Of a DNA stretch of 64,000 nt, positions 15,681-57,559 are shown in pieces; position 1 is the stretch's first letter, and each line of letters starts with the position of its first letter. The DNA is from Bdellovibrionales bacterium (GTDB lineage Bacteria; Bdellovibrionota; FAC87; UBA2466): positions 29,227-93,226 of the forward strand of contig SXPJ01000003.1 in assembly GCA_005776395.1 (NCBI GenBank). The letters run 5' to 3'. The translations under genes and the position numbers were made by a program. The notes beneath the pieces were generated by a model. It worked only from the letters and a program-made list of their open reading frames with translations. It was not told where the DNA came from and searched no databases.

Positions 15681-15723
15681 TCTTAGGTGCTATCATAGTT
15701 TTAGCACCGGGCGAAGAGATCTC

Positions 15724-16761: not shown

Positions 16762-16790
16762 TGAGACCTGAAACGTCCTTGTTTAGGGGT

Positions 16791-17588: not shown

Positions 17589-17592
17589 AGCT

Positions 17593-18162: not shown

Positions 18163-18228
18163 GGGAGGTTCCTTTCCATTTGATATTAACTATACTATCT
18201 TACAGAGTTTAATCGGGCTTAATACGGA

Positions 18229-19554: not shown

Positions 19555-19585
19555 GTTCTTTCTGATAATTCGATAAAAGTTTCGA

Positions 19586-29510: not shown

Positions 29511-30497
29511 ATGACTGAACTTATTTGCGGAAACTCAGAAAGCTTCCAAAAAACCCTAGCTAAAATAGAGCTCTATGCGCCCCACAGCTGGCCCGCTCTC
29601 ATCTTAGGGGAAACAGGAGTAGGTAAAGAGCTCATTGCTAAAAAGCTTCACGAACTCTCTCCCAGAAAATCAATGCCCTTTATCCCTGTTAATTGTAGCG
29701 CGATACCTGCTGGGCTTTTTGAAAGCGAACTCTTTGGCTTTGAGAAAGGGTCATTCTCAGGAGCTATGGCCCCCTCGAAAGGGCTTGCCCGTATGGCCCA
29801 TGGAGGGACTCTTTTTCTTGATGAATTAGGAGAGTTAGATATTAACCTTCAAGCTAAACTTTTGCGTCTTATCGACTCAGGGGAGGTCAGAGCCGTGGGC
29901 TCTCAAAGAATCGAATATATTAATATTCGAGTCATTGCCGCAACCAATGTAGATCTCTATACCGCTGTAAGCGCGGGCCATTTTCGTCAAGATCTCTTAG
30001 AAAGACTTTCGGTCTTAAGAATTCCTGTCCCTTCTTTAAAAGAGCGCAAAGAGGATATTCCACTCATTGCGACCGCCATTCTAGAGAGACTCGGGGCTAA
30101 ATTCAGTCCAGAAGATTTACAGATTTTGAATCTATTTGATTGGCCAGGAAATGTCCGACAATTACGAAATATTCTTATTCGTGCCACAGTGCTTGGAAAA
30201 ATGAAGGTGACCGACACTCTTTTGAAAACCCTCCTTAAAGAAGAGCTGCGAGACACCACTGTCACCGCTCCACCGCCTGAAAGAGAGGCTTTACTTCAAG
30301 GCCCCCTCGAGGCTATTGAGAGAGAGATCATTGTGGATCGCTTAAAAAAATATCATGGAAATCGTAAAGAGGCGGCAAAGGACTTAGGCATTGCAAAATC
30401 AACATTACATGAAAAAATACGACGCTGGAAAGAGGATCCCTCTATCAAGAAAACTTGGCCCATGGCTCGTTGGGCTAGTCCTCTTAACCTCGCCTAG
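29511..30497 (+). CDS. Sigma-54-dependent transcriptional activator with no N-terminal sensory or receiver domain (PspF-like architecture)
   Basis: Starts directly with the AAA+ sigma-54 interaction domain. It carries Walker A GETGVGKE, the ESELFG..GAFTGA-like segment ESELFGFEKGSFSGA, and a C-terminal Fis-type HTH (HGNRKEAAKDLGIAKSTLHEKIRR). It is 328 aa. Confidence 0.8.
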   Translation: MTELICGNSESFQKTLAKIELYAPHSWPALILGETGVGKELIAKKLHELSPRKSMPFIPVNCSAIPAGLFESELFGFEKGSFSGAMAPSKGLARMAHGGTLFLDELGELDINLQAKLLRLIDSGEVRAVGSQRIEYINIRVIAATNVDLYTAVSAGHFRQDLLERLSVLRIPVPSLKERKEDIPLIATAILERLGAKFSPEDLQILNLFDWPGNVRQLRNILIRATVLGKMKVTDTLLKTLLKEELRDTTVTAPPPEREALLQGPLEAIEREIIVDRLKKYHGNRKEAAKDLGIAKSTLHEKIRRWKEDPSIKKTWPMARWASPLNLA

Positions 30498-41357: not shown

Positions 41358-42621
41358 GTTTTTTTAATATCTCGCACAGTTCAAAAACATCTTGAAAGCT
41401 ATTATAGAGTGGCACAGGTGCAAACCTTAAAACTCCCGGCTCTCGATAATCGCACACAACCCCTTCTTCGCTTAATTTTTTCATTACTGCTTTACCTGTT
41501 TTTCCGAACTCTAAAGAAAGGGCACATCCTCGTTCCTTGGGAGTTGAAGGGGTCAGAATCTTTACCAACTTAAATTCATCCTGTTTTAATAAGGCTTCAA
41601 AGTAGTGAGTAAGAAGTTCACTTTTTCTTCTTAGATTAGCCATACCTACTTCATCGAAAATCTCCATTGAAGCTCTTAGAGTTGCCATGGGCAAAATAGG
41701 AGGATTACTCAATTGCCACCCCTCAGCTCCTGCCATCGGTCGAAACTCAGGCTCCATCAAAAACCGTTTTACTTTATCGTGCCCCCACCAGCCTTCAAGA
41801 CGAGGACGACTAAACTCTTCGGCGTGTCGCTCATGGACAAAGCAACCGCCTAAAGCCCCTGGACCTGCATTTAAATATTTATAAGAACACCAAACAGCGA
41901 AATCAACTTTGTCATCATGAAGTTGAAGCTCTAAATTTCCAGCCCCATGGGCCAAATCTACTCCAAATATAATTTGTTGAGTATGCGCTAGAGTCGCAAT
42001 CTCTTTAAGAGGAAAAGCTTGTCCTGTTCGATAGTTCACATCTCCAAGTAAAACAAGTGCAATGGAATCTCCTTCCGCCTGAATCAGCTCCTCAAGATCA
42101 CGAATATTTAAAAGGGTTTCATTCGGACGGGGACGCCATTCCAGAATAGTCTCTTTAGGATCCAACCCGTGAAGTTTTGCATGAGAAGCCACCGCATATT
42201 GATCCGAAGGGAAAGCACCTGCTTCGATCACAATTTTATATTTTTTCTTTGTAGGACGATAAAAGGAGATAAGCATTAAGTGAAGATTAACGGTAAGTGT
42301 ATTCATTACCACCACTTCAAGGGGTTTAGCCCCTACCAGTCGCGCCGTCGAATCGGTTAGAAACTCATGATAGGGATACCAGGGATGTTTTCCAACTTGA
42401 TGCCCCTCTACCGCAAGAGTTTCCCAATCATTTAAAACCTCATCTACATAGGCTCTGGCTTTTTTAGGCTGAAGTCCTAGAGAATTACCCACAAAATAGA
42501 GAACATTTCGCCCATCCTTTTGTTTGGGAAAATAGAATTGCTCTCGATACTTCTTTAGAGGATCAGCCGCATCCATTTTCGTCGCATAAGCAGCCCCTAA
42601 TTCAAATTGAGTCTCTTTCAC
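41347..42621 (-). CDS. kynU: Kynureninase (PLP-dependent)
   Basis: Aminotransferase class V fold with the kynureninase pattern (YLNAGPGA, conserved Lys region SYKYLN), 424 aa. Overlaps the kmo start. Confidence 0.85.
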   Translation of the reverse strand: MKETQFELGAAYATKMDAADPLKKYREQFYFPKQKDGRNVLYFVGNSLGLQPKKARAYVDEVLNDWETLAVEGHQVGKHPWYPYHEFLTDSTARLVGAKPLEVVVMNTLTVNLHLMLISFYRPTKKKYKIVIEAGAFPSDQYAVASHAKLHGLDPKETILEWRPRPNETLLNIRDLEELIQAEGDSIALVLLGDVNYRTGQAFPLKEIATLAHTQQIIFGVDLAHGAGNLELQLHDDKVDFAVWCSYKYLNAGPGALGGCFVHERHAEEFSRPRLEGWWGHDKVKRFLMEPEFRPMAGAEGWQLSNPPILPMATLRASMEIFDEVGMANLRRKSELLTHYFEALLKQDEFKLVKILTPSTPKERGCALSLEFGKTGKAVMKKLSEEGVVCDYREPGVLRFAPVPLYNSFQDVFELCEILKKHVK

Positions 42622-43635
42622 CTATTTAAACCTCTCCTTGGTGAGCCCCAACCATTGGAGAGCATTCATTCCCAACAGTTTCTGTCTTAATTGGGGCTTT
42701 AATCCCTTGATAGACTCAATAAGTCCCCCAGGATCAGACTCTCCAAGAGGAAAAGGATAATCGCTTCCCATAGAGACTTTATCTTCCCCAAAAGTCTGCA
42801 TAATATAGAGAAGAGCCATGGGATCATGAACTAAGGAATCGACCCAAAACTTCCCAAGATACTCTCGAGGATTAATTCGATTATCTAAGGCGCAAAGATC
42901 TGGCCTCACAAGCCAGCCCTGCTCTACTCTTCCTATAGTGATAGGAAACGCTCCACCTCCGTGAGCAAATGCCACTCGAAGATTAGGCAATCGCTCAAAA
43001 ACACCTCCGAAAATCATTGAACAAATCGCAAGAGAAACCTCGGCCGGCATTCCCACAAGCCACGGAAGCCAATACTTGGGCATTCGGTCCGTGCCCATCA
43101 TTTCCCAGGGATGAACAAAGATAGCAGCCCCCAATTTCTCTGCCTCTTGAAAAACAGGGAAAAGTTCACGGTGTTCCAAATTCCATTGATTAACATGTGA
43201 ACCAATTTGAATTCCGCATAGGCCAAGATCTTTAATACACCGATTAAGTTCCTGAATGGCTAATCCAGGATCTTGCATAGGAAGAGTTCCCAGCCCCACA
43301 AACCGCTTCGGATATTGAGCCACAACTCCAGCTATGTGATCATTTAAATATTTAGCAATCTCAAGATTATCTTTACCAGGGATTGCGTAATTAAACATAA
43401 CTGGAACTGTCGAAAGGACTTGGACATCCACATTGCTAGCCTTAGCCTCTTCGATCCTTTTTTCAGGATCCCAACAATTACTTTCAATGTCTCTAAAAAA
43501 CCTTCCATCATCCCAGAGCATTTTTGCAGAGCAGGTCGAAGTTTTAGCCAGTTCAATAAAACCCCCATACCCAAACCTCTTTTTAAAACTGGGAATTTCT
43601 GGAGGTAAAATATGGGTATGGATATCGATTTTCAT
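42622..43635 (-). CDS. 2-amino-3-carboxymuconate-6-semialdehyde decarboxylase (ACMSD, amidohydrolase-2 family)
   Basis: N-terminal metal-binding MKIDIHTHILP and the amidohydrolase_2 TIM barrel, 337 aa. Encoded in the operon between haaO and kynU. Confidence 0.7.
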   Translation of the reverse strand: MKIDIHTHILPPEIPSFKKRFGYGGFIELAKTSTCSAKMLWDDGRFFRDIESNCWDPEKRIEEAKASNVDVQVLSTVPVMFNYAIPGKDNLEIAKYLNDHIAGVVAQYPKRFVGLGTLPMQDPGLAIQELNRCIKDLGLCGIQIGSHVNQWNLEHRELFPVFQEAEKLGAAIFVHPWEMMGTDRMPKYWLPWLVGMPAEVSLAICSMIFGGVFERLPNLRVAFAHGGGAFPITIGRVEQGWLVRPDLCALDNRINPREYLGKFWVDSLVHDPMALLYIMQTFGEDKVSMGSDYPFPLGESDPGGLIESIKGLKPQLRQKLLGMNALQWLGLTKERFK

Positions 43636-44138
43636 TTTTTAGAATGGCCCCGGCCACATTTAGAACAGATCGTAGCTTTGGGATTAGAATAAAACCTATC
43701 AAAAACAGGTGGCAGATCTTTTACAATATCTGTCACGTAAAGAAACTCTTCGAAAAGTTTATGATTGCAGCTTTCGCAAAACCAAACAAACCCATCTTTT
43801 TCATTAGGCCATCGTTTTCTCTCAATAACTAAACCTACGCTATTAATAGGTCGCCTAGGAGAATGGGGAACCTTAGGAGGAAGTAAAAAGATCTCTCCAG
43901 CTTTGATAGGAAAATCGATAAATTCCCCCTGCTCTACCATCTTCAAGTTCATTTCTCCTTCTAATTGATAGAAGAACTCTTCCCCTTGATTGATATGGTA
44001 ATCGGCACGGCTATTAGGCCCCCCTACAATCGTAATCATAAACTCTCGATCGAGCCAAATCTGCTGATTCCCTACTGGAGGCTTAAGAAGAGCTCGATTA
44101 TCTGAGATCCATTTTTGTAAATTAATTGGGGGGAACAC
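43632..44138 (-). CDS. haaO: 3-hydroxyanthranilate 3,4-dioxygenase (cupin) with a C-terminal rubredoxin-like Cys4 site
   Basis: Cupin core VGGPNSRADYHINQGEEFFYQLEG, with C-terminal CESC…CSKC. Confidence 0.8.
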   Translation of the reverse strand: MFPPINLQKWISDNRALLKPPVGNQQIWLDREFMITIVGGPNSRADYHINQGEEFFYQLEGEMNLKMVEQGEFIDFPIKAGEIFLLPPKVPHSPRRPINSVGLVIERKRWPNEKDGFVWFCESCNHKLFEEFLYVTDIVKDLPPVFDRFYSNPKATICSKCGRGHSKK

Positions 44139-44884: not shown

Positions 44885-45226
44885 TTAGAGCTTTTTAAAA
44901 AGTTCACTAAATTTGATTCCATACAAATTACAAATCTTCCATAGCGTATAAATGGTAAAATTTTGTCCTGCTTCGATGCGCTGTAAATGGCGCCAGGACT
45001 TCCAGCCATGCTCTTCGGTTCCTTCTAAAGTCCAACCTCGATCAGTCCTTAATTTCTTAATTCTTTCTCTTAGAATCTTCTGAAACAGAATAAATTCTTC
45101 TTCTTTCTTTTCCATGGCAAATATCCCGATGCTTGACCTGTTGTGGTTATGATTTTTATTATTCTTTCTTGTTTTCACCTTAATCCTCTTTATTATTTTG
45201 TGTACTCCAGATAAGATGTATTCCAT
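44885..45226 (-). CDS. Small XRE-family HTH DNA-binding protein
   Basis: C-terminal Cro/C1-type HTH (…LQRIEAGQNFTIYTLWKICNLYGIKFSELF). The N-terminus is basic, so the true start may be the internal Met (MEKKEEEF). Confidence 0.45.
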   Translation of the reverse strand: MEYILSGVHKIIKRIKVKTRKNNKNHNHNRSSIGIFAMEKKEEEFILFQKILRERIKKLRTDRGWTLEGTEEHGWKSWRHLQRIEAGQNFTIYTLWKICNLYGIKFSELFKKL

Positions 45227-45250: not shown

Positions 45251-47023
45251 TTATCTAACTTTCTTAAGAGTTATCTTACTAATTCTGCGCTGCCCCGAAA
45301 GGATGTAAAAACCTTCAAACTCAAGTTCATCCAAAGAAAACTGTCCTTTAATTTGAGCCCATTTATAACTGTCTAGCTCGCCACTAGTCAGAACTAGAGC
45401 TCCATCGGATTTTCTAAAGGTTCCGTAATTAAAAGGAAGATTGATGAATTGAGTTACTAATTTTCCCATACAGCTATTGGGTCCGTCTTTAGTGATGGTA
45501 AGCTCAACGGGTTTATCATCTAAAAAACCTTGATAGGTCCCTGAAAGATTTTTTGGGATCTTTCTCTTCTCAGTAATAAGAGGGGAAAACTTTAAAATCT
45601 GCTTCCCCAAAAAAGGCAGATTGACCAAGTTATTAGTCACTTTTCCCTCAACAGATGTCTGATTATCCTGCATCGTAATTTTAAATATCATATCCCAAAT
45701 TTGATAGGCCCGATGAGAATAGATCGGAGAACCCTGTGCAAAATGATGTGCTTCAAACAGATCTTTCTGTCCTTCAAAGGCCACATAAAAAAAACCATAA
45801 TCAACGGGATATGAAGAGTTCCCATTCTGATACATAGTGAAGGCAATGATATATTTTCCATCTCCCGTAGAGGATAAGATAAAAGTCCCTACCTTATCTC
45901 CAATCGTTATGTCGTAAATTCCCTCAGCATCCTTCTCATTAATGGCTCCCATCACTGCAATTCGATTGCCTAACTGAGTAATAAATTCGGTTCTCTCGCT
46001 AATTCCAAAGTCTTCATACTTTTGTTTTAAAACCCCCAAAATATTTTTAAGAAAACTTAATTGCTCTTTTGGGACCTCCTGTTCACGATATAGAGAAAAG
46101 AGCATATTCCCTAGCTCCACCCATTGAGTAGGCATCATGGCATCAAAAGCAGATTTCAATCCTTCAAATTCAATGCTCCCGCCTTGAATCAATACCTTCC
46201 CTAGCCCGTCGATTAAAAGGTTCCCGGGAAATAGCTTAATAGCTATGGATAAATTACCAGGGTACTTAGATAAATTTACAGCAAGCTTTGCTATCCAATC
46301 GAGCTGCTCAAGTAAAGAGCGGAGCTCTTTAGTCACAACCATTCTCTGCTGAATAAAGTTAAACACCTCTACCATAGCTATCTGTCCCTGAACTCGATGA
46401 ATAACCTCCCCCAATTGTGCTACTGAAAACTCTCTACTTTGCTTGAGAATAGCCTTAACTGTCTCAGCCTGCAGTTCTTCATATTGACCGATCACAAAAG
46501 CTTCACTCTTAAACTCTCTAATAACCTCAAGTGAAATTGAGATCCCCACATTCAACTTCATAAACTCATCTACTGTAGAGGCTCTTTTTAAAAGATCAGA
46601 TTGTACCTGTGCCGCTAAGTACCGAGTTTGATTATCCGCATACTGAAAAAAAACTCTCAAAAACTCTGGGGAATCCGAAGCAAACCTCACCCATTTAATA
46701 GCACTCTTTGTTAAGGCTTGAGATAAAGACAATACCGGATTAGCACCATAACTCTCAAAATCCAGTTTAATCCCAACCTGTAAAAGCTTAGGGATAATTT
46801 CAATTAAAGGAAATAACTCCTCTTTTGTAGAAATTTGAGAAGCTATTCCTTGAAGCTCACTCGTTACCTTAATGAACTCGAGACGCCCTAATGATGCACG
46901 TTTCAACACCTCCTCAGCTGTAGGAGTAGCTGCGACAAGATGCTGAGTTATTCCAAAAACAAAAAGCATCCCCATCTTAAGAAATAATTTAAAAGTAAGT
47001 CTTCTAGCCATAATAATATTCAA
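45251..47023 (-). CDS. Secreted hypothetical protein, last gene of the NfrB-like envelope operon
   Basis: Signal peptide, 590 aa, no recognised domain. It is co-directional with the NfrB-like operon, 28 bp downstream of the 598 aa gene. Confidence 0.4.
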   Translation of the reverse strand: MNIIMARRLTFKLFLKMGMLFVFGITQHLVAATPTAEEVLKRASLGRLEFIKVTSELQGIASQISTKEELFPLIEIIPKLLQVGIKLDFESYGANPVLSLSQALTKSAIKWVRFASDSPEFLRVFFQYADNQTRYLAAQVQSDLLKRASTVDEFMKLNVGISISLEVIREFKSEAFVIGQYEELQAETVKAILKQSREFSVAQLGEVIHRVQGQIAMVEVFNFIQQRMVVTKELRSLLEQLDWIAKLAVNLSKYPGNLSIAIKLFPGNLLIDGLGKVLIQGGSIEFEGLKSAFDAMMPTQWVELGNMLFSLYREQEVPKEQLSFLKNILGVLKQKYEDFGISERTEFITQLGNRIAVMGAINEKDAEGIYDITIGDKVGTFILSSTGDGKYIIAFTMYQNGNSSYPVDYGFFYVAFEGQKDLFEAHHFAQGSPIYSHRAYQIWDMIFKITMQDNQTSVEGKVTNNLVNLPFLGKQILKFSPLITEKRKIPKNLSGTYQGFLDDKPVELTITKDGPNSCMGKLVTQFINLPFNYGTFRKSDGALVLTSGELDSYKWAQIKGQFSLDELEFEGFYILSGQRRISKITLKKVR

Positions 47024-47051
47024 TCAGAACTTTTCTAACGGAACTCCTTTC

Positions 47052-48848
47052 TCAAAACTCCTCTAGCGCTTCAGGGGTTCGAAGTAAGGGCTGACTACCG
47101 ATCCATTTCTTTAGATCGACAAACTCATATCCAGCCTTTCGAGTCCCTTCAATTAATGCTTCAATCGCTGAGACATCTCCTACAAATCTTGCCAACCCTT
47201 CATTACTGGTCTCTTCAAGAAGAAAGGGGTGGAGAAAGAAGGAGGCCCAAGCATCTCTCATCTTTCTATTTCTCTTCATAATTCGTACCATGTCATGAAT
47301 AGTAAGAGTTCTTAAGACCTGTTCGTTAAGGTAAGCTTGCACATTTCCTACATTCTCTGGAATAATCCTCTGTCCATAAACATCTCCAAAGACCTCATAA
47401 GGATAAAATTGCCCACTGGGGAGAAGAACTTTTGGAAACTCCACCTTGAGATCGTCAAAATATTTAAGCCTCTGCCCTTCGAGGGAGCGGTCAGGAGACT
47501 CAATATTTAAATTAGCAGGCAATTTTAAACTCCCAGTTTTACTAAAAGGGAAGTAGATCATTCGTCCAATACTCCAGTTAAAAAGTCGACTAAATATAAG
47601 GTAGTCCAAAGGGGAGGCCTGATAGTGAGGGGTCACCCATGCAATCGGATTAATTCCGACATCAGAGAAAAGATGTCGACCTTCCTCTATACGATTAACT
47701 ACATAAGAGGCTGAATCTCTATCCACAGGAATATTATGGACTCGATCCCAGAACTCAAAATCATCCCCTGACATCGCTGTAAAAGGATTGGGACGAGTCC
47801 CATATTGATGAGTCACCCCATGAAAAACGACACTCCCTCCACGCTCTTCAGCATACTTCAAAAAATCCACAAAATTTCTATTTTGCGTAATAGGAACAAA
47901 TCGATCTTCAATCTTCTCCTCCGCAACTCCTAAGGGATCGGTAAAAATAGGGATCACAGTCATACTAAAAGGGACTTTGTGCTTATAAAGAAGATCGGTC
48001 ATTTGATAGAGCTGCCATAATTGAAGCTTCGGATGAATATCCTCCAATCGAAAAAGAGCGGGCCGGTTATTGTCCTGTCTTCTAGGTTTTTCATTCAATA
48101 CATCAAATAAAATATCAGCCAAAATTAGATAACGATCTTCCTCGGTTGCAAATGAGAATGGACTATCAGCGACATACCAATGATTTTGATTCTTCAAAAT
48201 GTATGGGGATTTCACCCCCTCTTGAGTTGAATGCTGCGCCCAACTAACCACATATTTCGAGCTTTCGGCATTAAGAAGCTTAAATAGAACAATTTCGAAA
48301 GATGCTAGGAACGACTTTCGATTCTGAAGATCAAAGTCTCCAAACTTATTAAAAACCTCCTCTTGATAGGTAAAAGATTTAAAAAAACCGGGGCGACCTT
48401 TGGCGTCCAATTTCTCATAGTCCAACGCAGACAATCCCGTAAACTCCACACCCCACAAGCTAGCCAACTCCTCTTTAGGAATCTTCCAAATTTGATATCC
48501 CGCCCACACTACATTTTTTTTCGTTTTAATATAGTCTTTGATAAATGCATCTGGAATTTCGGCATCATAATAGGTCCCAAGATAAAAACTGGCCTCACAA
48601 TTCTCTAGCTGTCCGCTCTTATAGTTTTCAATTGGACGAATGACCTGTTGATAATTTGGAAAGTGGCCCAAAAGATTCTGCAATAGGATAGTATGAATTC
48701 TTCCAAAGTAATACTTAGAGGAAGCCTTATCAGCTCTGTCATAATACAGCTGTATGCATTTCATGCTCTCGGCATTACTCTCAGAAAATCGACACCCTAT
48801 AAACACAAGTAAAACCGTAATTATAATATATCCTATTATTCGATTCAT
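47052..48848 (-). CDS. Membrane-anchored hypothetical protein, possibly a polysaccharide-modifying (deacetylase-like) enzyme
   Basis: N-terminal TM segment, then a His-rich putative metal site (VVFHGVTHQYG). Its start overlaps the NfrB-like gene stop (ATGA coupling). The family assignment is tentative. Confidence 0.35.
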   Translation of the reverse strand: MNRIIGYIIITVLLVFIGCRFSESNAESMKCIQLYYDRADKASSKYYFGRIHTILLQNLLGHFPNYQQVIRPIENYKSGQLENCEASFYLGTYYDAEIPDAFIKDYIKTKKNVVWAGYQIWKIPKEELASLWGVEFTGLSALDYEKLDAKGRPGFFKSFTYQEEVFNKFGDFDLQNRKSFLASFEIVLFKLLNAESSKYVVSWAQHSTQEGVKSPYILKNQNHWYVADSPFSFATEEDRYLILADILFDVLNEKPRRQDNNRPALFRLEDIHPKLQLWQLYQMTDLLYKHKVPFSMTVIPIFTDPLGVAEEKIEDRFVPITQNRNFVDFLKYAEERGGSVVFHGVTHQYGTRPNPFTAMSGDDFEFWDRVHNIPVDRDSASYVVNRIEEGRHLFSDVGINPIAWVTPHYQASPLDYLIFSRLFNWSIGRMIYFPFSKTGSLKLPANLNIESPDRSLEGQRLKYFDDLKVEFPKVLLPSGQFYPYEVFGDVYGQRIIPENVGNVQAYLNEQVLRTLTIHDMVRIMKRNRKMRDAWASFFLHPFLLEETSNEGLARFVGDVSAIEALIEGTRKAGYEFVDLKKWIGSQPLLRTPEALEEF

Positions 48849-50269
48849 ACCGCCTGCCTCTCCTGAGCTTTGATATTTATAGATAGAATCGGTTCGACAC
48901 CAAAACCCAGAGGTAACTCATGATCAGTTTTGACCCATTTTACTGGCTCTTTACGCATTCGAGAGGTCACTGAGTGTAAAATCGCATTGAAACAGGCGAC
49001 TGAATTAACAAAAACAGAAAGAGGCCATCTGATGGGTAAAAGCCAAAGAGCACGAACCCCGTAGACTCTGAACACACAAGCGGATCGCTGTACCAGTCTA
49101 TTTAACATCAACAGGGAGTTGAACCCTAAGGCAGTTCCAATAAAAATCAATTCCGTTTTCGAGAGGGGCAATTGTTGCATGGAATGGTTCAAATAGAACA
49201 GTGCCATCAGCATGGCTGTAGGATATCCAATAAAGGCTAGTATATTGGTCGCAAGGCCTCGTCGATCTCGATACAGAAAATACCGATTAATAAACGAACC
49301 ACACCATCCTAAGTTTCTCCAGCCCTGAATGGATATCCCCGTGGTCCATCTCGTCTTTTGACGAATAGAACGCATAACCTTTTTTGGAAAATATTCTCTG
49401 GTTGCAATATAGTGAGGTCGATGACTCTGAGGATCTTGAAACCAATAACAGGCAAATGTCCCCTTGAATTTTAAAGCATGACTTCTGATCCCAAGTTCAT
49501 AATCCTCTGTGAGACTATCTTCGTAAAATACCCATCCCTGCTTTCTATACAAGGAATCAGCAAGTTTGGCTGAAAAGGCTGTTCCTACCCCAGCAGAAGG
49601 AATCGCTGCCCCAAGATAATCTCTAACTAGAAGATCTTTTGTATGAGACTCGGCAAACTCATCTACATAGGTACCGGCCACCAATTCATGGATGTTGACG
49701 TTTAAAGAAAAAACAGGAATCTGAATAAAATCGTACCTCTGTAACTTATAATTAATAAGTTGTAATGCCCAAGGATCGATCACATCTTCAGAGTCGTGGA
49801 GTAGATAGGCATCAATATCTAAGACTTCAGTAGAATCTCTGATTCCATTCAAAATCTGGTTGAGCATTTGCCCCTTGGAGGTTGGCCCAGGCTTATTATT
49901 AATGAGAGGAATAACCCTGGAATCACTCTGTGATACATTTTGAACAGCTTTAATAGTGCCTGAATCATTAGGATAGCAACCCACATAAAAGAGATAGTTA
50001 TCATATCTAATCTGGGTTAGGTTTCCATATAGCATCTGCCCTATGATCTCTCCCTCCTTCCATGCGGGAACTAAGATCGCTATTTTTTTTTGCGGAAGTT
50101 CAGTGAGTAAATGCAGTTCAGAATGTTTTATTTTCTTGGGTTTAAGCCCCTTAAACATAGCAAAGAGATCTAAAATTAGATCTTCCGTGCCTATAATAAC
50201 GTAGATAAAACACAGCCCCATTGCTAATCCAAAAACCAGTACCCATAAGAAGTCAGGGGAAGAACTCAT
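48845..50269 (-). CDS. NfrB-like synthase-type (processive) family 2 glycosyltransferase, truncated form lacking the C-terminal MshEN c-di-GMP-binding domain
   Basis: Motif-by-motif similarity to E. coli NfrB: ILVPAWKEGEIIG, YVGCYPNDSGT, KPGPTSKGQMLN, LLHDSEDVIDPWAL, IPSAGVGTAFS, SLTEDYELG, and the QxxRW motif in REYFPKK…RQKTRWTTGISIQGW. It has multiple TM helices and is 474 aa, against about 745 aa for NfrB. Confidence 0.8.
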   Translation of the reverse strand: MSSSPDFLWVLVFGLAMGLCFIYVIIGTEDLILDLFAMFKGLKPKKIKHSELHLLTELPQKKIAILVPAWKEGEIIGQMLYGNLTQIRYDNYLFYVGCYPNDSGTIKAVQNVSQSDSRVIPLINNKPGPTSKGQMLNQILNGIRDSTEVLDIDAYLLHDSEDVIDPWALQLINYKLQRYDFIQIPVFSLNVNIHELVAGTYVDEFAESHTKDLLVRDYLGAAIPSAGVGTAFSAKLADSLYRKQGWVFYEDSLTEDYELGIRSHALKFKGTFACYWFQDPQSHRPHYIATREYFPKKVMRSIRQKTRWTTGISIQGWRNLGWCGSFINRYFLYRDRRGLATNILAFIGYPTAMLMALFYLNHSMQQLPLSKTELIFIGTALGFNSLLMLNRLVQRSACVFRVYGVRALWLLPIRWPLSVFVNSVACFNAILHSVTSRMRKEPVKWVKTDHELPLGFGVEPILSINIKAQERQAV

Positions 50270-51054
50270 ATCTCCCCTCCAAACACTGCTAAAACTCGTA
50301 CTCCACCGGAACGATCTTTAAGGAAATCAACATTCATAATCTTTCCAGAAACCGGAATGACATAGGCCCCGGTAACTCCCACATACATCTTCTTAAAAAT
50401 ATATTGAGCTCGTAAAGTAGGTCGTAATTCTATTCTACGGTTATAAAATCTCCCCTTAGTGTCGGAGCTTGCAAAAGGTTCTAAATAGAGATCAAAGTTC
50501 CATGGCGAAAATCCTTTTTCTCTCAATCCTAATCTTGCCCAACCCGATATAACTGTATTGTTTTCATCAGCAGAGGTAAGAATTCCCTCCCCATAAACCT
50601 CTTGATAAGAACTCAAGTGTTTTAAAATCTCATAAAACCATTGGCTGTTATAAATCACTGAGGCCCTTAAATCCCTACTGCTTTGAAAATCCGCAGTCTT
50701 ATAAAATGTACGTTGGCGCCATTCTAATAGAGCTGTGAAATGGAAAAGACTCCAAGAGACTCCGGGGCCGTAGTAAAAATAGGAGGAGCCTTTGTCGAGC
50801 TGATGCTGTACATTCCCCCGAGTCATGACTTCACTACCCAACTGGATAAAGGGTTCAATAACCAGCTCTACCGGAAAGATATTGCGAAGCCGCAATGAGC
50901 TAATCAAAGAATTTTCCTGACTCAAAAATCCCTGTTCTGAATAGATCTGGGTTTTAGCCTGAGAGGGCTCTATCCAAAATAAAGAGAACATAAAAATCAC
51001 AAGTATGAAGAGTCTCTTTTTTGATCTTTGTTTCATCCTTAAAAACAATTGCAA
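50266..51054 (-). CDS. Predicted small outer-membrane beta-barrel protein, first gene of the NfrB-like operon
   Basis: Signal peptide (MKQRSKKRLFILVIFMFSLFWIEPSQA from the internal Met at 51036). The body has alternating hydrophobic residues and is rich in Y/W/G. Its stop overlaps the glycosyltransferase start. Confidence 0.45.
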   Translation of the reverse strand: MQLFLRMKQRSKKRLFILVIFMFSLFWIEPSQAKTQIYSEQGFLSQENSLISSLRLRNIFPVELVIEPFIQLGSEVMTRGNVQHQLDKGSSYFYYGPGVSWSLFHFTALLEWRQRTFYKTADFQSSRDLRASVIYNSQWFYEILKHLSSYQEVYGEGILTSADENNTVISGWARLGLREKGFSPWNFDLYLEPFASSDTKGRFYNRRIELRPTLRAQYIFKKMYVGVTGAYVIPVSGKIMNVDFLKDRSGGVRVLAVFGGEI

Positions 51055-51226
51055 AAATCGATACCAGTATCTTTGTGACTCAACTGAAAGATTTCTCAGT
51101 ATTTACCAGGAGAAAACACCTACTCTCTTGCAACACTCTTACGATCCGGTCTGATCTTTGTTGCAAATTTAAACGATATAATTAACCCAATTTACGCCGC
51201 TAATCCCTAATTTTATTTCTAGTATT

Positions 51227-51242
51227 TGGAACGGCTCTTGCT
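51227..51242 (+). promoter_or_regulatory. Sigma-54 (-24/-12) type promoter TGGAAC-N5-TTGCT upstream of the 51264 gene
   Basis: TGGAACGGCTCTTGCT has correct GG-N10-GC spacing. It lies about 25-55 nt upstream of the candidate start codons. Confidence 0.4.
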
Positions 51243-51263
51243 TGTCACAGCACTTGATTATTA

Positions 51264-52583
51264 ATGAACCCAATAATTGAAGGGAGAAAGCCGATGCTTT
51301 CACGATTGACTAAGGTTACCTTTGTTTTATTAAGTATGTGGGGCACGTTTAGCTCAGCGGCCAATATAAAAACGGCTGGAGTCACATTAACTGAACTGGG
51401 CACTTATCTTTATGATGCTACTCAAGGTTCCCAAATAAAAACAGAGGCTCAGAAAAGAGTAGATGAGCTCTATGAGATTGGAATAAGACATATCGTCCTT
51501 TCTCCAATAGCCCACATGTCCAATCCTCGGAAATCAGAAATCACTCCAAAAACACCGCCCACAGATCGCCCTAGTGAAAGAAAACGTTATTTGAGACTTA
51601 TTAATTATATCCATGGTAAGGGAATGACGGTAGGCCTTAGGCCAATCTTTCTAGTCGTAGATTCCCAGGGAAAAACACCCCACATTGAAACATTGCCCGA
51701 TGGAACAAAAAAACATTGGTGGCACGGAAATATTCAACCCGATTCTCCTAATGCCTGGTTTGAATCCTTTAAAACCTATTTGGATATTTATTTGCCCATT
51801 GCTCAAGTTGGAAAAGTAGAACAGTTCACCATGGGAGCTGAACTCTACTCCATGACGGTAGGTATCGAAGACCAATGGAAAGAGAAGCCTCACGGATTTC
51901 CAGGGCGATGGTTAGAATTACTTCGCTATATAAAAACCAAACTTCCCTCCACCACCCAGGTTATGTACGACATCAATTTTACTGATGATAAAATTTCAGG
52001 ATCCGCGGGTGGCCTTGGAGAATTTGGGGGAGAGTTTGCAAGATGGAGATATCGTCTTGTGGATCTAGCTAATCCTATTAAACCTGAAGAACTTGAGATC
52101 TGGAAAAATCTAGTCAACTTTTGGAAAGAGCTCGATGCTATAGGAATTGATATGTACCGATCTCTTGCGACCGAAGGGACTAAAATTTCACCAGATACTA
52201 ATGAGCTTATTAAAACTCTAAAAGAGACCACAGATCGTTTCGCAACTCAGATCGATAACGGACTTTTTGAAATTGAAAACGCTGTAGGCCAATCCAAATC
52301 AATTATCCTCAAAGAGATCGGTTTTCGAAGTGTTGAAAAATCTTTTATCGATCCCTTTCTCTATGTTGATGCAGATAGAGGAACGGTAAATCTACAACAT
52401 CAGTACGCCGCTTATGATGCCATCATGCAATCTTTCTGGAAATCTAACTGGGATTGGTTTGGAGGTATTGTATTCTGGGATATTTCGGTCGATCCTAATC
52501 TGCATGGGGAAAAAGATGCTGGCTTTAGTTTTCTCCGTAAAGAACCCACCGAAAAACTGTTAAAAACATATCTTCTTCCTTAA
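51264..52583 (+). CDS. Secreted protein, putative TIM-barrel glycoside hydrolase
   Basis: Signal peptide (MLSRLTKVTFVLLSMWGTFSSAA from the internal Met at 51294). There are candidate catalytic Glu in MGAELYS and in ILKEIGFRSVE. The assignment is weak and rests on pattern only. Confidence 0.35.
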   Translation: MNPIIEGRKPMLSRLTKVTFVLLSMWGTFSSAANIKTAGVTLTELGTYLYDATQGSQIKTEAQKRVDELYEIGIRHIVLSPIAHMSNPRKSEITPKTPPTDRPSERKRYLRLINYIHGKGMTVGLRPIFLVVDSQGKTPHIETLPDGTKKHWWHGNIQPDSPNAWFESFKTYLDIYLPIAQVGKVEQFTMGAELYSMTVGIEDQWKEKPHGFPGRWLELLRYIKTKLPSTTQVMYDINFTDDKISGSAGGLGEFGGEFARWRYRLVDLANPIKPEELEIWKNLVNFWKELDAIGIDMYRSLATEGTKISPDTNELIKTLKETTDRFATQIDNGLFEIENAVGQSKSIILKEIGFRSVEKSFIDPFLYVDADRGTVNLQHQYAAYDAIMQSFWKSNWDWFGGIVFWDISVDPNLHGEKDAGFSFLRKEPTEKLLKTYLLP

Positions 52584-52611
52584 AGAGATATTAGAAGAAG
52601 GCGCATTACCT

Positions 52612-53760
52612 ATGGAATCAAAAAAAAATGTAATGGTTATCTTTGGCACACGTCCCGAAGCCATTAAATTAGCCCCGGTACTAAAAGAGTTAGAAAAGAG
52701 TACATCCATGAAACCAGTCAGTGTAGCCACAGCTCAACACCGTGGTCTCATGGATCAAGTTCTCGATTTTTTTAACATACAACCCGATTTTGATTTAAAT
52801 TTAATGAAACCCAATCAGGATCTTTTCTATACGATGACAGAGTGTCTCAATCGAATTAAAGATCTCATTGCAGAAGTGCAACCCTCTCTACTCGTAGTTC
52901 AGGGTGACACGACTACGGCATTTACTGCCGCTTTAGCTGCATTCTATCACAAGACACCCGTAGCTCATGTTGAAGCAGGACTTCGCACCTACTATAAATA
53001 CTCGCCTTTCCCTGAGGAGATGAATCGAAGGCTTATTAGCCCTCTTGCCGAGCTTCACTTTGCTCCTACAAAAGCTGCGAAGTCCAATTTATTAAGAGAA
53101 GGGATCTCTGAAAACTCAATCTCAGTTACCGGGAATACCAGTATTGATGCTTTACTCTTGGGATGCACCCAAAAATTACACCCGCCAAGAAACCTTATTT
53201 TATCCGAAGAGGCGCCTTTGATTATTCTTACTCTACACAGAAGAGAAAATTTTGGGGCCCCTCTTACTGAAATATTTTCAGCGATCAAGAAATTCGCCAT
53301 TAAATATTCCCATGTACAAATCGTCTACCCCGTTCACCCAAATCCAAATGTAAAAGAGACTGCTCACTCTTTGCTCAAGAATATTCCTAACATCTCTTTA
53401 ATTGAACCTGTCGACTACAAAGAAATGCTTTATTTAATGAAACGCTCACAATTTATTCTGACCGACTCTGGCGGGATACAGGAGGAAGCTCCATCCCTTG
53501 GGAAACCAGTACTGGTTCTACGGGAATCCACAGAGCGGGCAGAGGCGGTTGAAGCAGGTTGTGCTTACTTAGTAGGCCATCATTCAGAACTTATCTTTCG
53601 AATGATGGAAACATTACTGGATAAGACTTCTCAGTTTTATCTGAATATGTCCTCTGCTAAGAATCCTTTTGGGGATGGAACAGCCTCACAAAAGATCATT
53701 AACCGAATTGAGCACTTTTTTAGAGGGGTTGAAAGGAACAAATTGCCTTGGGCTGCTTAA
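52612..53760 (+). CDS. wecB: UDP-N-acetylglucosamine 2-epimerase (non-hydrolysing)
   Basis: N-terminal VMVIFGTRPEAIKLAPV and the conserved His/Glu region (QGDTTTAF…HVEAGLRT), 382 aa. Confidence 0.85.
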   Translation: MESKKNVMVIFGTRPEAIKLAPVLKELEKSTSMKPVSVATAQHRGLMDQVLDFFNIQPDFDLNLMKPNQDLFYTMTECLNRIKDLIAEVQPSLLVVQGDTTTAFTAALAAFYHKTPVAHVEAGLRTYYKYSPFPEEMNRRLISPLAELHFAPTKAAKSNLLREGISENSISVTGNTSIDALLLGCTQKLHPPRNLILSEEAPLIILTLHRRENFGAPLTEIFSAIKKFAIKYSHVQIVYPVHPNPNVKETAHSLLKNIPNISLIEPVDYKEMLYLMKRSQFILTDSGGIQEEAPSLGKPVLVLRESTERAEAVEAGCAYLVGHHSELIFRMMETLLDKTSQFYLNMSSAKNPFGDGTASQKIINRIEHFFRGVERNKLPWAA

Positions 53761-53828: not shown

Positions 53829-54365
53829 ATGTTACTCCTCAAAAATATGAAGGCTTTACTTTTAATCGCAGTATTTTTTTCCCTTAATATTTTTTCAGAA
53901 GACACTATCCTAGGACTCTGTCAGGTCTCCTCTGTTATGGCAGGCAGGCAAAACACCTATATCTACCTTGAAAACTGTAACGGAAATCTAGGTTTTAAAG
54001 ACAAAACTATGGTGCTCCCTCATCACATCCATAAAAGTTTTGAAGAAATTATCGATAACATTATTAATATTAGGACCGTGGACACCACGCCAGATGTTTT
54101 GGGGCAGAAACAGACAGCGGAACTAGCTTATCTGCATCAGTTAAAATTAAGAGTTCAATTAAAATACTCAGATGATAACACCCCTGTCTATCTCTCTCTC
54201 GCAGAGTCTTTACCTCAACCAAAAGAAGTAGCTGCACCTCAGCCTCTTCAACCCAATCCCTCATCTTCGAACTGCAATCCCAGTCAACCCACAAATCCAG
54301 ATAAGGACTTTAAACCTGTCCCTCCTCCGCCAGGTGGTTTTCTAAGATTTTTTCATCTCAAGTAA
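53829..54365 (+). CDS. Secreted hypothetical protein with a Pro-rich C-terminus
   Basis: Signal peptide MKALLLIAVFFSLNIFS. The C-terminus is PQPKEVAAPQPLQPNPSSS…PVPPPPGG. Confidence 0.4.
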   Translation: MLLLKNMKALLLIAVFFSLNIFSEDTILGLCQVSSVMAGRQNTYIYLENCNGNLGFKDKTMVLPHHIHKSFEEIIDNIINIRTVDTTPDVLGQKQTAELAYLHQLKLRVQLKYSDDNTPVYLSLAESLPQPKEVAAPQPLQPNPSSSNCNPSQPTNPDKDFKPVPPPPGGFLRFFHLK

Positions 54366-54532: not shown

Positions 54533-55729
54533 ATGAACAAAGTTCTTAATATATTTAGTTTCAATCTCTTTCTTTTTGTTTTTACGATTTTATTGTCTGC
54601 CTGCCAAAACACCCCCCCTCTTGGAATGCTAAAAAAGAAAGATCAGGTTCTGTTTAAATCCTCCCCAATTACAATGCCCGAACCTAATCACTACCAAGTG
54701 CACTTAAGATGGGCTCCAATCGTTATAAAAGATACTCGAGGAGAAAATAAAACTTGGATGCTTTATAGAGCAATGGATTCACAACCCCTAGCCCCCTACA
54801 TGACCTTAAAACCCGAACAGACTGAAATTATCGACCCTGAAGTAGAGGCCGGAGCCACTTATACCTATTTATTGGGATTCTTAACGGGGGCAGAACTCAC
54901 AGGAAAAGAGAGCATCAAAGTCACAGTGCCTAAAGATCTCGTAGTTACTAAACTAATTAGGGCCAATACGCTTACTGAATATCGCCGAATCTTTATCGAA
55001 AAAGCTGGAATTATCGAAACAATGGGAGAGAGGCTCGAATTAATTGCGGATGAGCTCCATTCCGACTCAGGCACTATTCAAACCTACGGAAACGAAAATC
55101 TTGCTCCCCAGGGTTTCAATGGTCGAACCCCAGAAATCTTGGTTATCCAGGTAAAAAGAGCCTTTGGAAACTTAAATATCCAAGCTATAGGACAAACCGG
55201 GGGGAAGGGATTACCTGGTGATAAAGGGGCCAAAGGAGCCCCTGGAAGAAACGGGGAGCGAGCCGTTTCTACTGTAATGCGTTTTTCATCTAGGGATGGG
55301 GGAAGTACAGAATCTAACCCTATATGTGGTGACCTTGATAAAGCCGTAGGAAAGACAGGACACCAAGGAGGAGTGGGTAGGCAGGGCGGAATCGGTGCTA
55401 CTGGTGGAAATTCCCCTCGAGTTTATGTACGGATTGAACAAGTTTCCGAAATCGATATAAAAGTAGATAAAATTATAGGAAAGGGAGGAGAAGGTGGGGA
55501 TGGAGGCCCCGGAGGAGATGGAGGGGAAGGTGGCGAAAAGGGAATTGAGGATATCCATGGGGCTTGCAGGGCTCCTCGTAAAGGCGACACCGGCCCCAAT
55601 GGACCCCAAGGCCCAAAAGGCAATCCTGGAATGGGGGGACTCAATAATTCCCCAAGTTGCATCAAAATATCTAATAAAGAAGAAGGGGCCTGCAGCCTAT
55701 TTCTTGAAAAAAATGGGTTTGTTCTTTAG
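54533..55729 (+). CDS. Lipoprotein with collagen-like Gly-X-Y repeats
   Basis: Lipobox LLSAC. There are Gly-X-Y runs GKGLPGDKGAKGAPGRNGE, GHQGGVGRQGGIGATGG and GDTGPNGPQGPKGNPGMGG, and a Gly/Asp/Glu-rich block GGEGGDGGPGGDGGEGGEKG. Confidence 0.55.
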   Translation: MNKVLNIFSFNLFLFVFTILLSACQNTPPLGMLKKKDQVLFKSSPITMPEPNHYQVHLRWAPIVIKDTRGENKTWMLYRAMDSQPLAPYMTLKPEQTEIIDPEVEAGATYTYLLGFLTGAELTGKESIKVTVPKDLVVTKLIRANTLTEYRRIFIEKAGIIETMGERLELIADELHSDSGTIQTYGNENLAPQGFNGRTPEILVIQVKRAFGNLNIQAIGQTGGKGLPGDKGAKGAPGRNGERAVSTVMRFSSRDGGSTESNPICGDLDKAVGKTGHQGGVGRQGGIGATGGNSPRVYVRIEQVSEIDIKVDKIIGKGGEGGDGGPGGDGGEGGEKGIEDIHGACRAPRKGDTGPNGPQGPKGNPGMGGLNNSPSCIKISNKEEGACSLFLEKNGFVL

Positions 55730-56940: not shown

Positions 56941-57378
56941 CTATCTCGTTGTCTCCGGCACAGTCATAAACTCAAAACTCACCCAATTCTTAATACGCTG
57001 AAAATCCGAAACATTCTCCGTAATCAACATCGCGTTATTTTCCTTCGCACTGAGTGCAATGAGAATATCCCACGTAAGTCGCCGGCGTGGTTTTGGTTCA
57101 AAGCGATGTTTTTTCTGCATTTGCGACATTAACTGGCCTGCTACTACAAACTGGTCATCTTGCATTCCAATTAGAGGAAATGATTTTTGGTGTTGGCGCA
57201 AAATATTTTCTTCGATACTTGTTTTTGCTCCTGCCCAGAGTTCCATTAGGATTATCTTATTCATAGTGTAGAGAAAGCCGCCACGTAGTAACGGTTCAAG
57301 TCGTTTTTGGTAGACTGGATCTCTAAGTAAATTAATGTAAACGTTAGAGTCAAAAAATAGGAGTTCAGCTTTCTTCAT
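56941..57378 (-). CDS. vapC: PIN-domain toxin VapC
   Basis: LLFFDSNVYINLL carries the first acidic residue and LITENVSDF is a distal acidic motif. It is about 145 aa from the internal Met MKKAELL. Its start overlaps the antitoxin gene end. Confidence 0.65.
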   Translation of the reverse strand: MKKAELLFFDSNVYINLLRDPVYQKRLEPLLRGGFLYTMNKIILMELWAGAKTSIEENILRQHQKSFPLIGMQDDQFVVAGQLMSQMQKKHRFEPKPRRRLTWDILIALSAKENNAMLITENVSDFQRIKNWVSFEFMTVPETTR

Positions 57379-57559
57379 CGAAGCCTTCCCATTTGCTTTT
57401 TCCCGTTGTTTTACGAAAAAGATCAATTGCCTGACGATTATTAATGAGATTCGTCAACGCTTTTTCGACTGTTGCTGTAGTCTCATCTTCGCCAAGTACT
57501 TTTTTGGCCTGTTCGAGAATTTCTTTATCCAATCGCATATTCACGCTTTGTTTAGCCAT
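57365..57559 (-). CDS. vapB: VapB-type antitoxin
   Basis: MAKQSVNMRLDKEILEQAKK has the MRxxLDxELL pattern of VapB-like antitoxins, 64 aa from the ATG at 57559. The track ORF begins at an upstream GTG. Confidence 0.6.
   Translation of the reverse strand: MAKQSVNMRLDKEILEQAKKVLGEDETTATVEKALTNLINNRQAIDLFRKTTGKSKWEGFDEES

Follow-up and report, generated by a model that had tools for sequence, protein, structure and literature searches.

A conserved NfrB-family polysaccharide synthase cluster without MshEN in Bdellovibrionota: a candidate Nfr-type ManNAc-polymer system

Introduction

A 64-kb stretch of contig SXPJ01000003.1 from a Bdellovibrionales bacterium (positions 29,227 to 93,226; hereafter, the window) carries an operon for an NfrB-like glycosyltransferase family 2 (GT2) synthase and, close by, the epimerase gene wecB. 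An earlier note on this DNA had proposed a candidate Nfr-type secretion system for an N-acetylmannosamine (ManNAc) exopolysaccharide (EPS), with a synthase that lacks the c-di-GMP-binding MshEN domain and with partners unlike the NfrA and YbcH of E. coli. The locus thus raises the question of whether these genes form an Nfr-type system, with which export and modification parts, and under what control. It was only in 2021 that NfrB-type synthases were recognised, and the chemistry of their product has yet to be defined; NfrB depends on WecB, and homologues of nfrB are found together with wecB (PMC8669469; PMC8669472). We consider it likely that the cluster makes, trims and exports a ManNAc-based surface polysaccharide via an Nfr-type synthase-dependent system. 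Despite its wide occurrence it is unannotated, and we found no description of it in the searchable literature.

Results

The Synthase Belongs to the NfrB Family and Ends before MshEN

The window proteins were assigned to families by searches with Pfam and NCBIfam models. The GT2 protein matches Pfam PF13641 (1e-34) and PF13632 (7e-27), and the only NCBIfam models that it matches at E <= 0.01 are of the NfrB/PRK14716 type (E 6e-111 to 1.5e-75), with no match to the PgaC_IcaA and CelA models at this threshold. PRK14716.1-3 gave 372 bits (E 6e-111; equivalog cut-off, 409), and the NfrB model PRK11234 gave 333 bits over model positions 12-474 of 723 (E 3e-99; equivalog cut-off, 1170). Since these scores lie under the equivalog cut-offs, the protein is a member of the NfrB family but not an equivalog. 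By BLASTP, its residues 15-453 align with residues 18-478 of E. coli K-12 NfrB at 34% identity (E 8e-74), and the DxD, TED and QxxRW motifs fall together (LHDSEDVI/LHDAEDVI, SLTEDYELG/SLTEDYDIG and RQKTRW/RQKSRW in the window protein and E. coli NfrB, respectively). The catalytic signatures D169, D267 and W330 of E. coli NfrB were mutated by Junkermeier and Hengge (PMC8669469), and the blocks around all three are conserved in the window protein. Its architecture also agrees: a transmembrane helix at the N terminus precedes the GT-A domain, which is cytoplasmic, and the membrane region at the C terminus can be aligned with that of NfrB; there was no significant match among PDB sequences. Hence, the NfrB-like character claimed for this protein, including its QxxRW signature, is borne out by the models, the identity and all three motifs.

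MshEN (PF05157) is found by Pfam at residues 542-628 of E. coli NfrB and in the synthases of Ralstonia and of two further loci described below (L018 and L048), whereas the window synthase has no match to it and stops 21 residues past its last aligned position (NfrB residue 478). The coverage of the NfrB model likewise reaches only up to the MshEN part, in agreement with the suggestion that the protein ends before this domain. Its orthologues in related loci have a median length of 466 amino acids (aa) and no MshEN.

The Synthase Gene Lies in a Tightly Packed Operon Opposite GH113 and wecB

All six open reading frames (ORFs) listed in the earlier note are present, with the same coordinates. The barrel, GT2, DUF2334 and 586-aa genes follow one another on the minus strand, and a glycoside hydrolase family 113 (GH113) gene and wecB are transcribed divergently (Table 1). 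The barrel/GT2 and GT2/DUF2334 junctions are 4-nucleotide (nt) ATGA stop/start overlaps with GGAGG-like sequences just before them, and a gap of 28-40 nt separates DUF2334 from the 586-aa gene; the proposed translational coupling is thus seen as overlaps at the first two junctions and as a short gap at the third. A terminator scan found nine sites against 9.8 expected by chance, all nine within coding sequence according to the ORF coordinates. The wecB gene starts 28 nt past the GH113 stop and lies 1.6 kb from the operon start. The base composition of the cluster is that of its flanks, which does not suggest a recent import.

Three starts were moved from those of the mechanical ORFs. The barrel gene probably begins at ATG 51036 (MKQRSKKR...), downstream of TTG 51054 (262 aa), as this gives a classical signal peptide, MKQRSKKRLFILVIFMFSLFWIEPSQA, and is also the start in the closest relative, L003. 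ATG 47011 (MARRL...) is the probable start of the 586-aa gene because the resulting length fits homologues of 585-589 aa. For the GH113 gene, the gene call and the alignment with L003 favour ATG 51294 over the 439-aa ORF at 51264..52583.

The Accessory Proteins: An Epimerase, a Hydrolase and a YdaL-Type Protein

WecB scored 460 bits against TIGR00236 (cut-off 210, E 7e-138), so that the gene near the operon does encode a non-hydrolysing epimerase equivalog. The ORF at 51264 had been put forward as a secreted hydrolase to be compared with several glycoside hydrolase families, and it is GH113 that it matches (PF22612, 8e-21, 75 bits against a gathering score of 27). The protein carries a signal peptide, has a weak PDB match around the acid/base Glu to the GH113 beta-1,4-mannanase 5yli, and shares two Glu that are invariant in 27 orthologues, E183 in GAEL and E341 in KExGF. 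Together, the model match and the conserved glutamates place it in GH113 by sequence. A relationship to YbcH was considered and rejected, as BLASTP found nothing and hhalign of the family profile against YbcH gave a probability of 1.5%.

The 598-aa protein, which the note had singled out for comparison with carbohydrate esterase family 4 (CE4) and DUF2334, matches Pfam DUF2334 (PF10096) over residues 264-556 (5e-47) and none of the CE4 Pfam models. It has one N-terminal hydrophobic segment, a membrane anchor or a possible lipobox (FIGC). The match to the family is full-length, and a database search returned 345 relatives, many of them labelled 'uncharacterized protein YdaL' by JGI; the namesake, YdaL, is a member of the B. 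subtilis EPS operon ydaJKLMN. An alignment of 20 diverse members shows the invariant motifs RxED(270), H343xxxH347, PH408Y, RD532xW and FxH540, whose order we take to resemble that of the metal-binding and catalytic motifs of the NodB domain in CE4 enzymes. A Streptomyces homologue is labelled 'polysaccharide deacetylase family protein' by PGAP. In some genomes, DUF2334 is fused to the GT2 synthase itself, namely in P0025, P0063 and P0115 (about 1035 aa each) and in a 1064-aa protein of locus L043. In B. subtilis, ydaLMN are required for the c-di-GMP-dependent EPS (PMC13274460; PMC5422440). No paper mentioning DUF2334 in an EPS context was found in the searchable literature.

The Export Candidates: A Small Barrel and a Solenoid Protein

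The barrel protein (the 262-aa ORF) has no Pfam or NCBIfam match. Its Sec signal peptide ends at ...EPSQA|KTQ and leaves about 230 mature residues, and an AlphaFold model built with nine homologues is all-beta with 12-14 strands and matches outer-membrane (OM) channels, at low confidence (predicted local distance difference test, pLDDT, 55). Most orthologues end in Phe. The signal peptide, the model, the C-terminal Phe and fusions to tetratricopeptide repeats (TPR) in other genomes together agree with the predicted small OM beta-barrel.

By contrast with the TPR-fused barrels elsewhere, no TPR or NfrA_C was matched in the window barrel or in 39 small-barrel orthologues; a Pfam scan of every member of the barrel alignment found no EPS-porin family at E <= 1, and the family has no significant match among PDB sequences. 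Direct homology of the barrel to NfrA was considered and is not claimed: BLASTP and a family hidden Markov model (HMM) gave marginal, non-significant hits to E. coli and Ralstonia NfrA inside the NfrA_C region, and hhalign against Ralstonia NfrA gave a probability of 4%. The family nevertheless forms the C-terminal part of TPR proteins in L018 (residues 187-407 of 435) and L048 (residues 399-598 of 644), both encoded beside NfrB+MshEN genes. This kinship implies that the export route is a rearranged form of the usual TPR-porin and not something unrelated. The claim that the partners do not resemble NfrA or YbcH is therefore right as to detectable sequence similarity and too strong as to the barrel, given its relatives beside NfrB+MshEN genes.

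The 586-aa protein has a signal peptide and belongs to a small family (seven word-based matches; 105 representatives among 1.84 billion proteins) that has no Pfam model, no NCBIfam match and no relative among PDB sequences. Pairwise and HMM comparisons showed no similarity to NfrA, YbcH or NfrB. Its model is confident (pLDDT 83) and consists of an ARM/TPR-like alpha-solenoid at about residues 18-348, followed by two 8-stranded beta-barrels at about residues 350-460 and 477-570. The gene is absent from every locus with a TPR-fused barrel and present in most loci with a bare barrel, which suggests that the modelled protein may be a detached periplasmic scaffold.

A second, paralogous barrel-GT2-DUF2334 operon was observed in several Bdellovibrio/Pseudobdellovibrio genomes (L054, L056, L057, L053, L058, L050 and L046, at about 11.9-13.8 kb of the respective locus); in HCB154, for example, L041 and L054 are both present. 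There, DUF2334 is followed by a gene for a protein of 610-628 aa with a C-terminal Phe and no Pfam match, and in six of the seven loci no GH113 gene was detected within the 10-kb flanks. These proteins were considered as distant kin of the 586-aa family and rejected (hhalign probability 0.1%).

The Cluster Recurs in about 45 Genomes

Species-representative genomes were scanned with the DUF2334 alignment, which gave 327 relatives, and the best 79 loci were analysed by tblastn of the window proteins and by HMMs iterated over all locus ORFs. An NfrB-like GT2 gene neighbours DUF2334 in 56 of these 79 loci by tblastn, GH113 in 34 and wecB in 33. The HMMs found 47 ORFs of the 586-aa family in about 46 loci, nearly all directly downstream of DUF2334, and 45 barrel ORFs in about 43 loci, nearly all directly upstream of GT2. 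Where the locus was covered fully on both sides (56 loci), GT2, barrel and 586-aa gene occur together in 28, and GT2 and barrel only in 12. The cluster recurs in about 45 genomes, mostly Bdellovibrionota and including B. bacteriovorus; the complete genomes among the best 79 loci include B. bacteriovorus Bd5, Bdellovibrio sp. HCB-110, HCB185ZH, qaytius and Pseudobdellovibrio HCB154. Adjacency of the same families in dozens of independent genomes is far beyond chance, and the block that the note had asked to be looked for in relatives is strongly conserved.

The usual order, on one strand, is barrel-GT2-YdaL-586aa-GH113-wecB (for example, L009-L013), from which the window and L003 differ only by inversion of GH113(-wecB). 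In Bd5, the genes for barrel, GT2, YdaL, a 575-aa protein and GH113 overlap or nearly abut, and their products are publicly labelled 'glycosyltransferase', 'DUF2334 domain-containing protein' and 'glycoside hydrolase family 113 / hypothetical protein', the others 'hypothetical protein'. Literature searches for the cluster, including Bdellovibrio with N4 adsorption protein or exopolysaccharide, gave nothing relevant, in keeping with the view that the arrangement is undescribed.

DUF2334 loci outside these genomes come from Legionella wadsworthii and from metagenome-assembled genomes (MAGs) of Coxiellaceae, Parachlamydiaceae, Elusimicrobia, Pirellulaceae and Oligoflexales. On a Burkholderia vietnamiensis plasmid (L083, NZ_CP091982.1), a DUF2334 gene stands between two diguanylate cyclase genes with no annotated GT2 neighbour in a PLSDB gene table that is incomplete.

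YdaL and wecB Are Also Linked in Canonical Nfr Clusters

In 136 records of Ralstonia solanacearum megaplasmids, one string of genes combines a YdaL homologue (33% identity over 542 residues) with NfrB, NfrA, wecB and two small hypothetical genes. This NfrB has MshEN, 40% identity to E. coli NfrB (PRK15489, 1164 bits) and 31% to the window GT2, and the NfrA has TPR repeats and NfrA_C; the 19.5-kb stretch holds no GH113 or 586-aa-family gene. None of the papers found describes this annotated Nfr-type cluster. The DUF2334 part of the 'non-canonical partners' in the earlier note was thus overstated, as YdaL also occurs in ydaJKLMN and in these canonical NfrB(MshEN)-NfrA-wecB clusters.

Intermediate arrangements were also found. 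L018, from an uncultured gammaproteobacterial MAG, has at 8764-20829 a tandem duplicate of a three-gene unit, DUF2334, TPR-barrel (435 aa) and GT2+MshEN (759 aa), with wecB in front of it; just upstream lies the gene for a 947-aa TPR+barrel protein that resembles PelB. L048, from Legionella wadsworthii, encodes a TPR protein, GT2 and DUF2334 in this order with wecB nearby, and its GT2 has a weak MshEN match (E 1.5e-4, under the gathering score). A Streptomyces plasmid carries wecB, a PgaC-like GT2 and YdaL side by side. With the linkages in Ralstonia, Streptomyces and Bdellovibrionota, the pairing of wecB and YdaL extends across three phyla. Judged from these sequences, YdaL and WecB occur together repeatedly, with one or the other of two GT2 subfamilies as their partner.

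Control Is Probably Transcriptional

Pfam and NCBIfam found no MshEN, PilZ or GGDEF in the proteins of the window cluster, and gene-family clustering of the 79 loci found none among the conserved neighbours. A riboswitch in place of MshEN was also considered and rejected, as Rfam gave no match, including c-di-GMP (GEMM) riboswitches, at 44-55 kb of the window (E <= 1) or in six related loci (gathering score). Lacking MshEN, PilZ, GGDEF and a riboswitch, the cluster probably has its output set transcriptionally, possibly via sigma-54, or by an unlinked factor.

The sigma-54-type promoter that the note had placed before the GH113 gene, TGGAACGGCTCTTGCT, is the sole 1-mismatch match in the window, where matches with at most two mismatches are at chance level (26 against 21.9 expected). 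The best consensus match thus does lie there, but in the alignment with the closest relative, L003, it is not conserved. Upstream of the barrel operon of the window, TGGTATCGATTTTTGCA was examined as a sigma-54 site and rejected, its GG-to-GC spacing being one base too long. In eight of 45 related loci, a -24/-12 site immediately precedes the barrel gene, where 0.032 per 360 nt would be expected, and L019 has a perfect site, TGGCACAAGGCTTGCT. In L009, L010 and L013, AGGCAT-N5-TTGCA sites stand upstream of the barrel ORF start (29 nt in L009 and L010, 11 nt in L013), and a gene for an NtrC-type activator (receiver, Sigma54_activat and HTH_8) lies convergently right after wecB. Sigma-54 control is thus a reasonable hypothesis for the family, plausible from these sequence matches and unproven for the window. 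At 29598-30449 (+) of the window, about 20 kb from the operon, there is a sigma-54 activator-like coding region with 38% identity over 296 residues to the NtrC-type protein of L010; no other candidate activator in the window lies nearer.

Neighbouring Genes

A gene for an XRE-type helix-turn-helix (HTH) protein adjoins the operon downstream on the same strand; among the related loci, only the two closest, L003 and L004, retain it in this place (84-88% identity). It may be co-transcribed with the operon or regulate it, its membership being uncertain. The genomes closest to the window are Bdellovibrionaceae/Bdellovibrionota MAGs, and the window sequence is identical to the 113-kb metagenome contig ENA ERZ27257034.

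Beside the EPS genes, at 41347-44138 (-) and extending upstream, lies a kynurenine-pathway cluster with kynureninase (Aminotran_5/KYNU_C), an ACMSD-like amidohydrolase and 3-hydroxyanthranilate 3,4-dioxygenase; according to Pfam labels, a flavin-dependent (FAD) monooxygenase gene follows beyond it on the source contig. On the other side, 54533-55729 (+) encodes a protein of 398 aa in which a lipoprotein-like signal (LLSAC) is combined with long glycine-rich, collagen-like GxxG repeats; it has no Pfam or NCBIfam match, and a proline-rich 178-aa secreted protein is encoded just upstream (53829-54365). A PIN-domain protein (Pfam label) at 56941-57426 (-) is probably the toxin of a toxin-antitoxin pair and is unrelated to the EPS cluster.

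Table 1. Features of the cluster in the window, with activator genes of three related loci.
Feature	Coordinates	Strand	Remarks
XRE-type HTH protein	44885..45226	-	probably ~76 aa from ATG 45115; Pfam HTH_3 2e-06
Secreted 586-aa protein, putative periplasmic scaffold/adaptor	45251..47011	-	mechanical ORF 590 aa, TTG 47023
YdaL-family DUF2334 protein, putative periplasmic polysaccharide de-N-acetylase	47052..48848	-	598 aa
NfrB-family processive GT2 synthase	48845..50269	-	474 aa, without MshEN
Barrel gene, putative polysaccharide export porin	50266..51036	-	256 aa from ATG 51036
Divergent intergenic control region, barrel-synthase operon versus GH113-wecB	51037..51293
Sigma-54-type -24/-12 match TGGAACGGCTCTTGCT	51227..51242	+	52 nt upstream of likely GH113 start
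Secreted GH113-like TIM-barrel glycoside hydrolase, putative polymer trimming	51294..52583	+	429 aa
WecB, non-hydrolysing UDP-GlcNAc 2-epimerase	52612..53760	+	382 aa; TIGR00236
NtrC-type activator, L009	15973-17358	-
NtrC-type activator, L010	12046-13431	-
NtrC-type activator, L013	about 15916-17274	-

Discussion

The findings fit the following course of events. WecB, by its family assignment, would supply UDP-ManNAc, and the inner-membrane NfrB-family GT2, which has the motifs of a processive synthase, would polymerise it and thread the chain across the membrane; UDP-ManNAc is proposed as the substrate because of the linkage to wecB and the genetics of E. coli. The YdaL/DUF2334 protein, anchored in the membrane, would then modify the chain in the periplasm, most likely by partial de-N-acetylation, as suggested by its conserved Asp/His motifs, by database annotation and by analogy with PssB, PgaB and PelA. 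The GH113-like enzyme, with its two conserved Glu, may trim or clear the polymer, and the chain would leave through the small OM barrel of 12-14 predicted strands. In the most speculative step, the 586-aa helical-repeat and double-barrel protein would bridge the periplasm as a scaffold, by analogy with the TPR repeats that do so, fused to the porin, in NfrA, PgaA, PelB and BcsC.

Several points weigh against this account. The sugar, its linkage and its deacetylation are all read from sequence. The barrel model has low confidence, and homology of the barrel to those of NfrA_C, PgaA, BcsC and PelB was not demonstrable. The scaffold role of the 586-aa protein is drawn from its modelled fold class and gene position, and seven bare-barrel loci have the unrelated 610-628 aa protein in that position. 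The deacetylase role of DUF2334 comes from motif inspection and annotation; no member of its alignment matches a CE4 Pfam model at E <= 1, and the family has no sequence match in PDB. The analogy with Listeria PssB takes that deacetylase to be a DUF2334 protein. In eight loci, DUF2334 has no neighbouring GT2. Finally, the missing c-di-GMP domain is compatible with an unlinked receptor.

This last point leads to an alternative that could hold together with the proposed polysaccharide system and to which we give a real, if minor, chance, namely that c-di-GMP still controls it, either by means of a receptor whose gene lies outside the cluster or at a site on the synthase that escaped recognition. 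YdaK of B. subtilis and PssE of Listeria are known examples of separate receptors, the canonical NfrB relies on a specific diguanylate cyclase (PMC8669469; PMC8669472), an elaborate c-di-GMP network is described in Bdellovibrio (PMC6733907), and diguanylate cyclase genes flank DUF2334 on the Burkholderia plasmid; the cluster and the conserved neighbours of the 79 loci, however, have no MshEN, PilZ or GGDEF and no GEMM riboswitch was found, while sigma-54 sites and an NtrC-type activator recur instead. The nature of the polymer could also be questioned, in that GT2 might take another substrate, such as UDP-GlcNAc, with wecB serving a different glycan such as a lipopolysaccharide (LPS) or capsule component. 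The substrate specificity of the NfrB family was never shown in vitro and the E. coli product is described as uncharacterised (PMC8669472), wecB was detected in only 33 of the 79 locus sequences, and the GH113 enzymes characterised so far are mannanases and not ManNAc-ases. We find a polymer of this kind unlikely, as wecB stands beside GT2/YdaL in Bdellovibrionota, Ralstonia, Legionella, a Pirellulaceae MAG and Streptomyces, a published analysis found the same wecB rule for NfrB homologues (PMC8669469), and a hydrolase of a mannanase family suits a manno-configured backbone.

Most carriers are predatory Bdellovibrionota, and Bdellovibrio deacetylates prey peptidoglycan. Hence, the cluster might instead serve an envelope or periplasmic glycan, or secreted enzymes acting on prey cell walls, and not a free exopolysaccharide; the barrel is, moreover, smaller than known EPS porins (an estimated 12-14 strands against 16 in NfrA, PMC8669472). 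Such a role seems improbable to us, given that the module is present in the non-predators Legionella, Ralstonia, Pirellulaceae, Elusimicrobia, Parachlamydiaceae and Streptomyces, that the DUF2334-synthase fusions of some genomes tie DUF2334 to the cell's own polymer, and that QxxRW together with a membrane region at the C terminus characteristically marks synthases that both polymerise and translocate.

Going beyond an Nfr-type ManNAc polysaccharide, a bolder and more doubtful reading can be offered tentatively: Bdellovibrio-like bacteria might export a partly deacetylated poly-ManNAc adhesin in a way that is undescribed, through a minimal TPR-less porin of 12-14 strands and a new adaptor family (an ARM/TPR-like solenoid with two calycin-like barrels), under a sigma-54/NtrC-type switch and not synthase-bound c-di-GMP, with YdaL as the common ManNAc-polymer deacetylase of the Nfr, Yda/Pss and Bdellovibrio-type systems.

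The cluster would hardly astonish a specialist, and its value lies in testable predictions. It shows that the export and modification modules which accompany the synthase core and WecB are interchangeable. YdaL/DUF2334, so far without a tested function, is common to Ralstonia Nfr clusters, Firmicute Yda EPS and the Bdellovibrio-type system, which leads to the testable prediction that it is a ManNAc-polymer deacetylase. Two uncharacterised families, the putative small porin and the solenoid/double-barrel protein, would be added to the known parts for EPS export. Predatory bacteria, for which adhesion to prey matters, would have a conserved surface glycan that has so far gone unstudied, and a natural Nfr-type synthase without a c-di-GMP switch would be useful for asking what MshEN gates.

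Comparison with Known Systems

With E. coli Nfr, whose product is the glycan receptor of phage N4, the window system shares the GT2 subfamily, the DxD/TED/QxxRW motifs, the N- and C-terminal membrane regions and the linkage to wecB, as well as a synthase-dependent logic with an OM barrel and a periplasmic accessory protein of the TIM-barrel type. It differs in that the synthase has no MshEN and the barrel, of about 230 residues, has neither TPR nor NfrA_C. No window protein matches DUF4434/YbcH (PF14488), in place of which GH113 is present, with no detectable relationship. Conversely, the E. coli nfrBA-ybcH operon has neither YdaL/DUF2334 nor the 586-aa solenoid/double-barrel protein. Measured by sequence, three features that define E. 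coli Nfr, MshEN, NfrA and YbcH, are thus missing from the window system. The Ralstonia cluster has in common with it the NfrB-family synthase, wecB and a YdaL-type DUF2334 protein, whereas it keeps MshEN and a true NfrA.

The B. subtilis YdaJKLMN and Listeria PssA-E/PssZ systems resemble the window cluster in combining a GT2 synthase with a dedicated glycoside hydrolase and, in B. subtilis, in the namesake YdaL. The Listeria product is a beta-1,4-ManNAc EPS with a dedicated deacetylase, PssB (PMC6307706). These systems are Gram-positive and lack an OM component. The literature likens their GT2 (YdaM/PssC) to PgaC/IcaA and not to NfrB; it is accompanied by a BcsB-like subunit (YdaN/PssD) and a degenerate-GGDEF c-di-GMP receptor (YdaK/PssE), and their hydrolase is of another family (PssZ is GH126). 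In the window, no cluster protein has a Pfam match to BcsB or GGDEF. As judged against the published descriptions of Yda/Pss, YdaL is the sole component common to the window system and these Firmicute systems.

The layout of Pga and Pel is also similar, with a GT2 synthase, a periplasmic deacetylase, glycoside hydrolase activity, a helical-repeat scaffold and an OM barrel, and partial deacetylation of a hexosamine polymer would be the expected chemistry. Their partners have no detected sequence relationship to those of the window, porin and scaffold form a single protein in them, and PgaCD or PelD acts as the c-di-GMP sensor. More generally, the Pga/Pel/Bcs/Alg/Nfr class has its TPR scaffold fused to the porin, whereas the window encodes a separate secreted protein with a modelled solenoid, which may take its place. 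In summary, by family assignment and structural model, the cluster fits the synthase-dependent EPS class of Gram-negative bacteria, with a GT2 synthase, a predicted OM barrel and putative periplasmic modifying enzymes. From the sequence comparisons, the most fitting view of the Bdellovibrio-type operon is that of an Nfr-type system that has no sensor domain and whose porin has no TPR arm.

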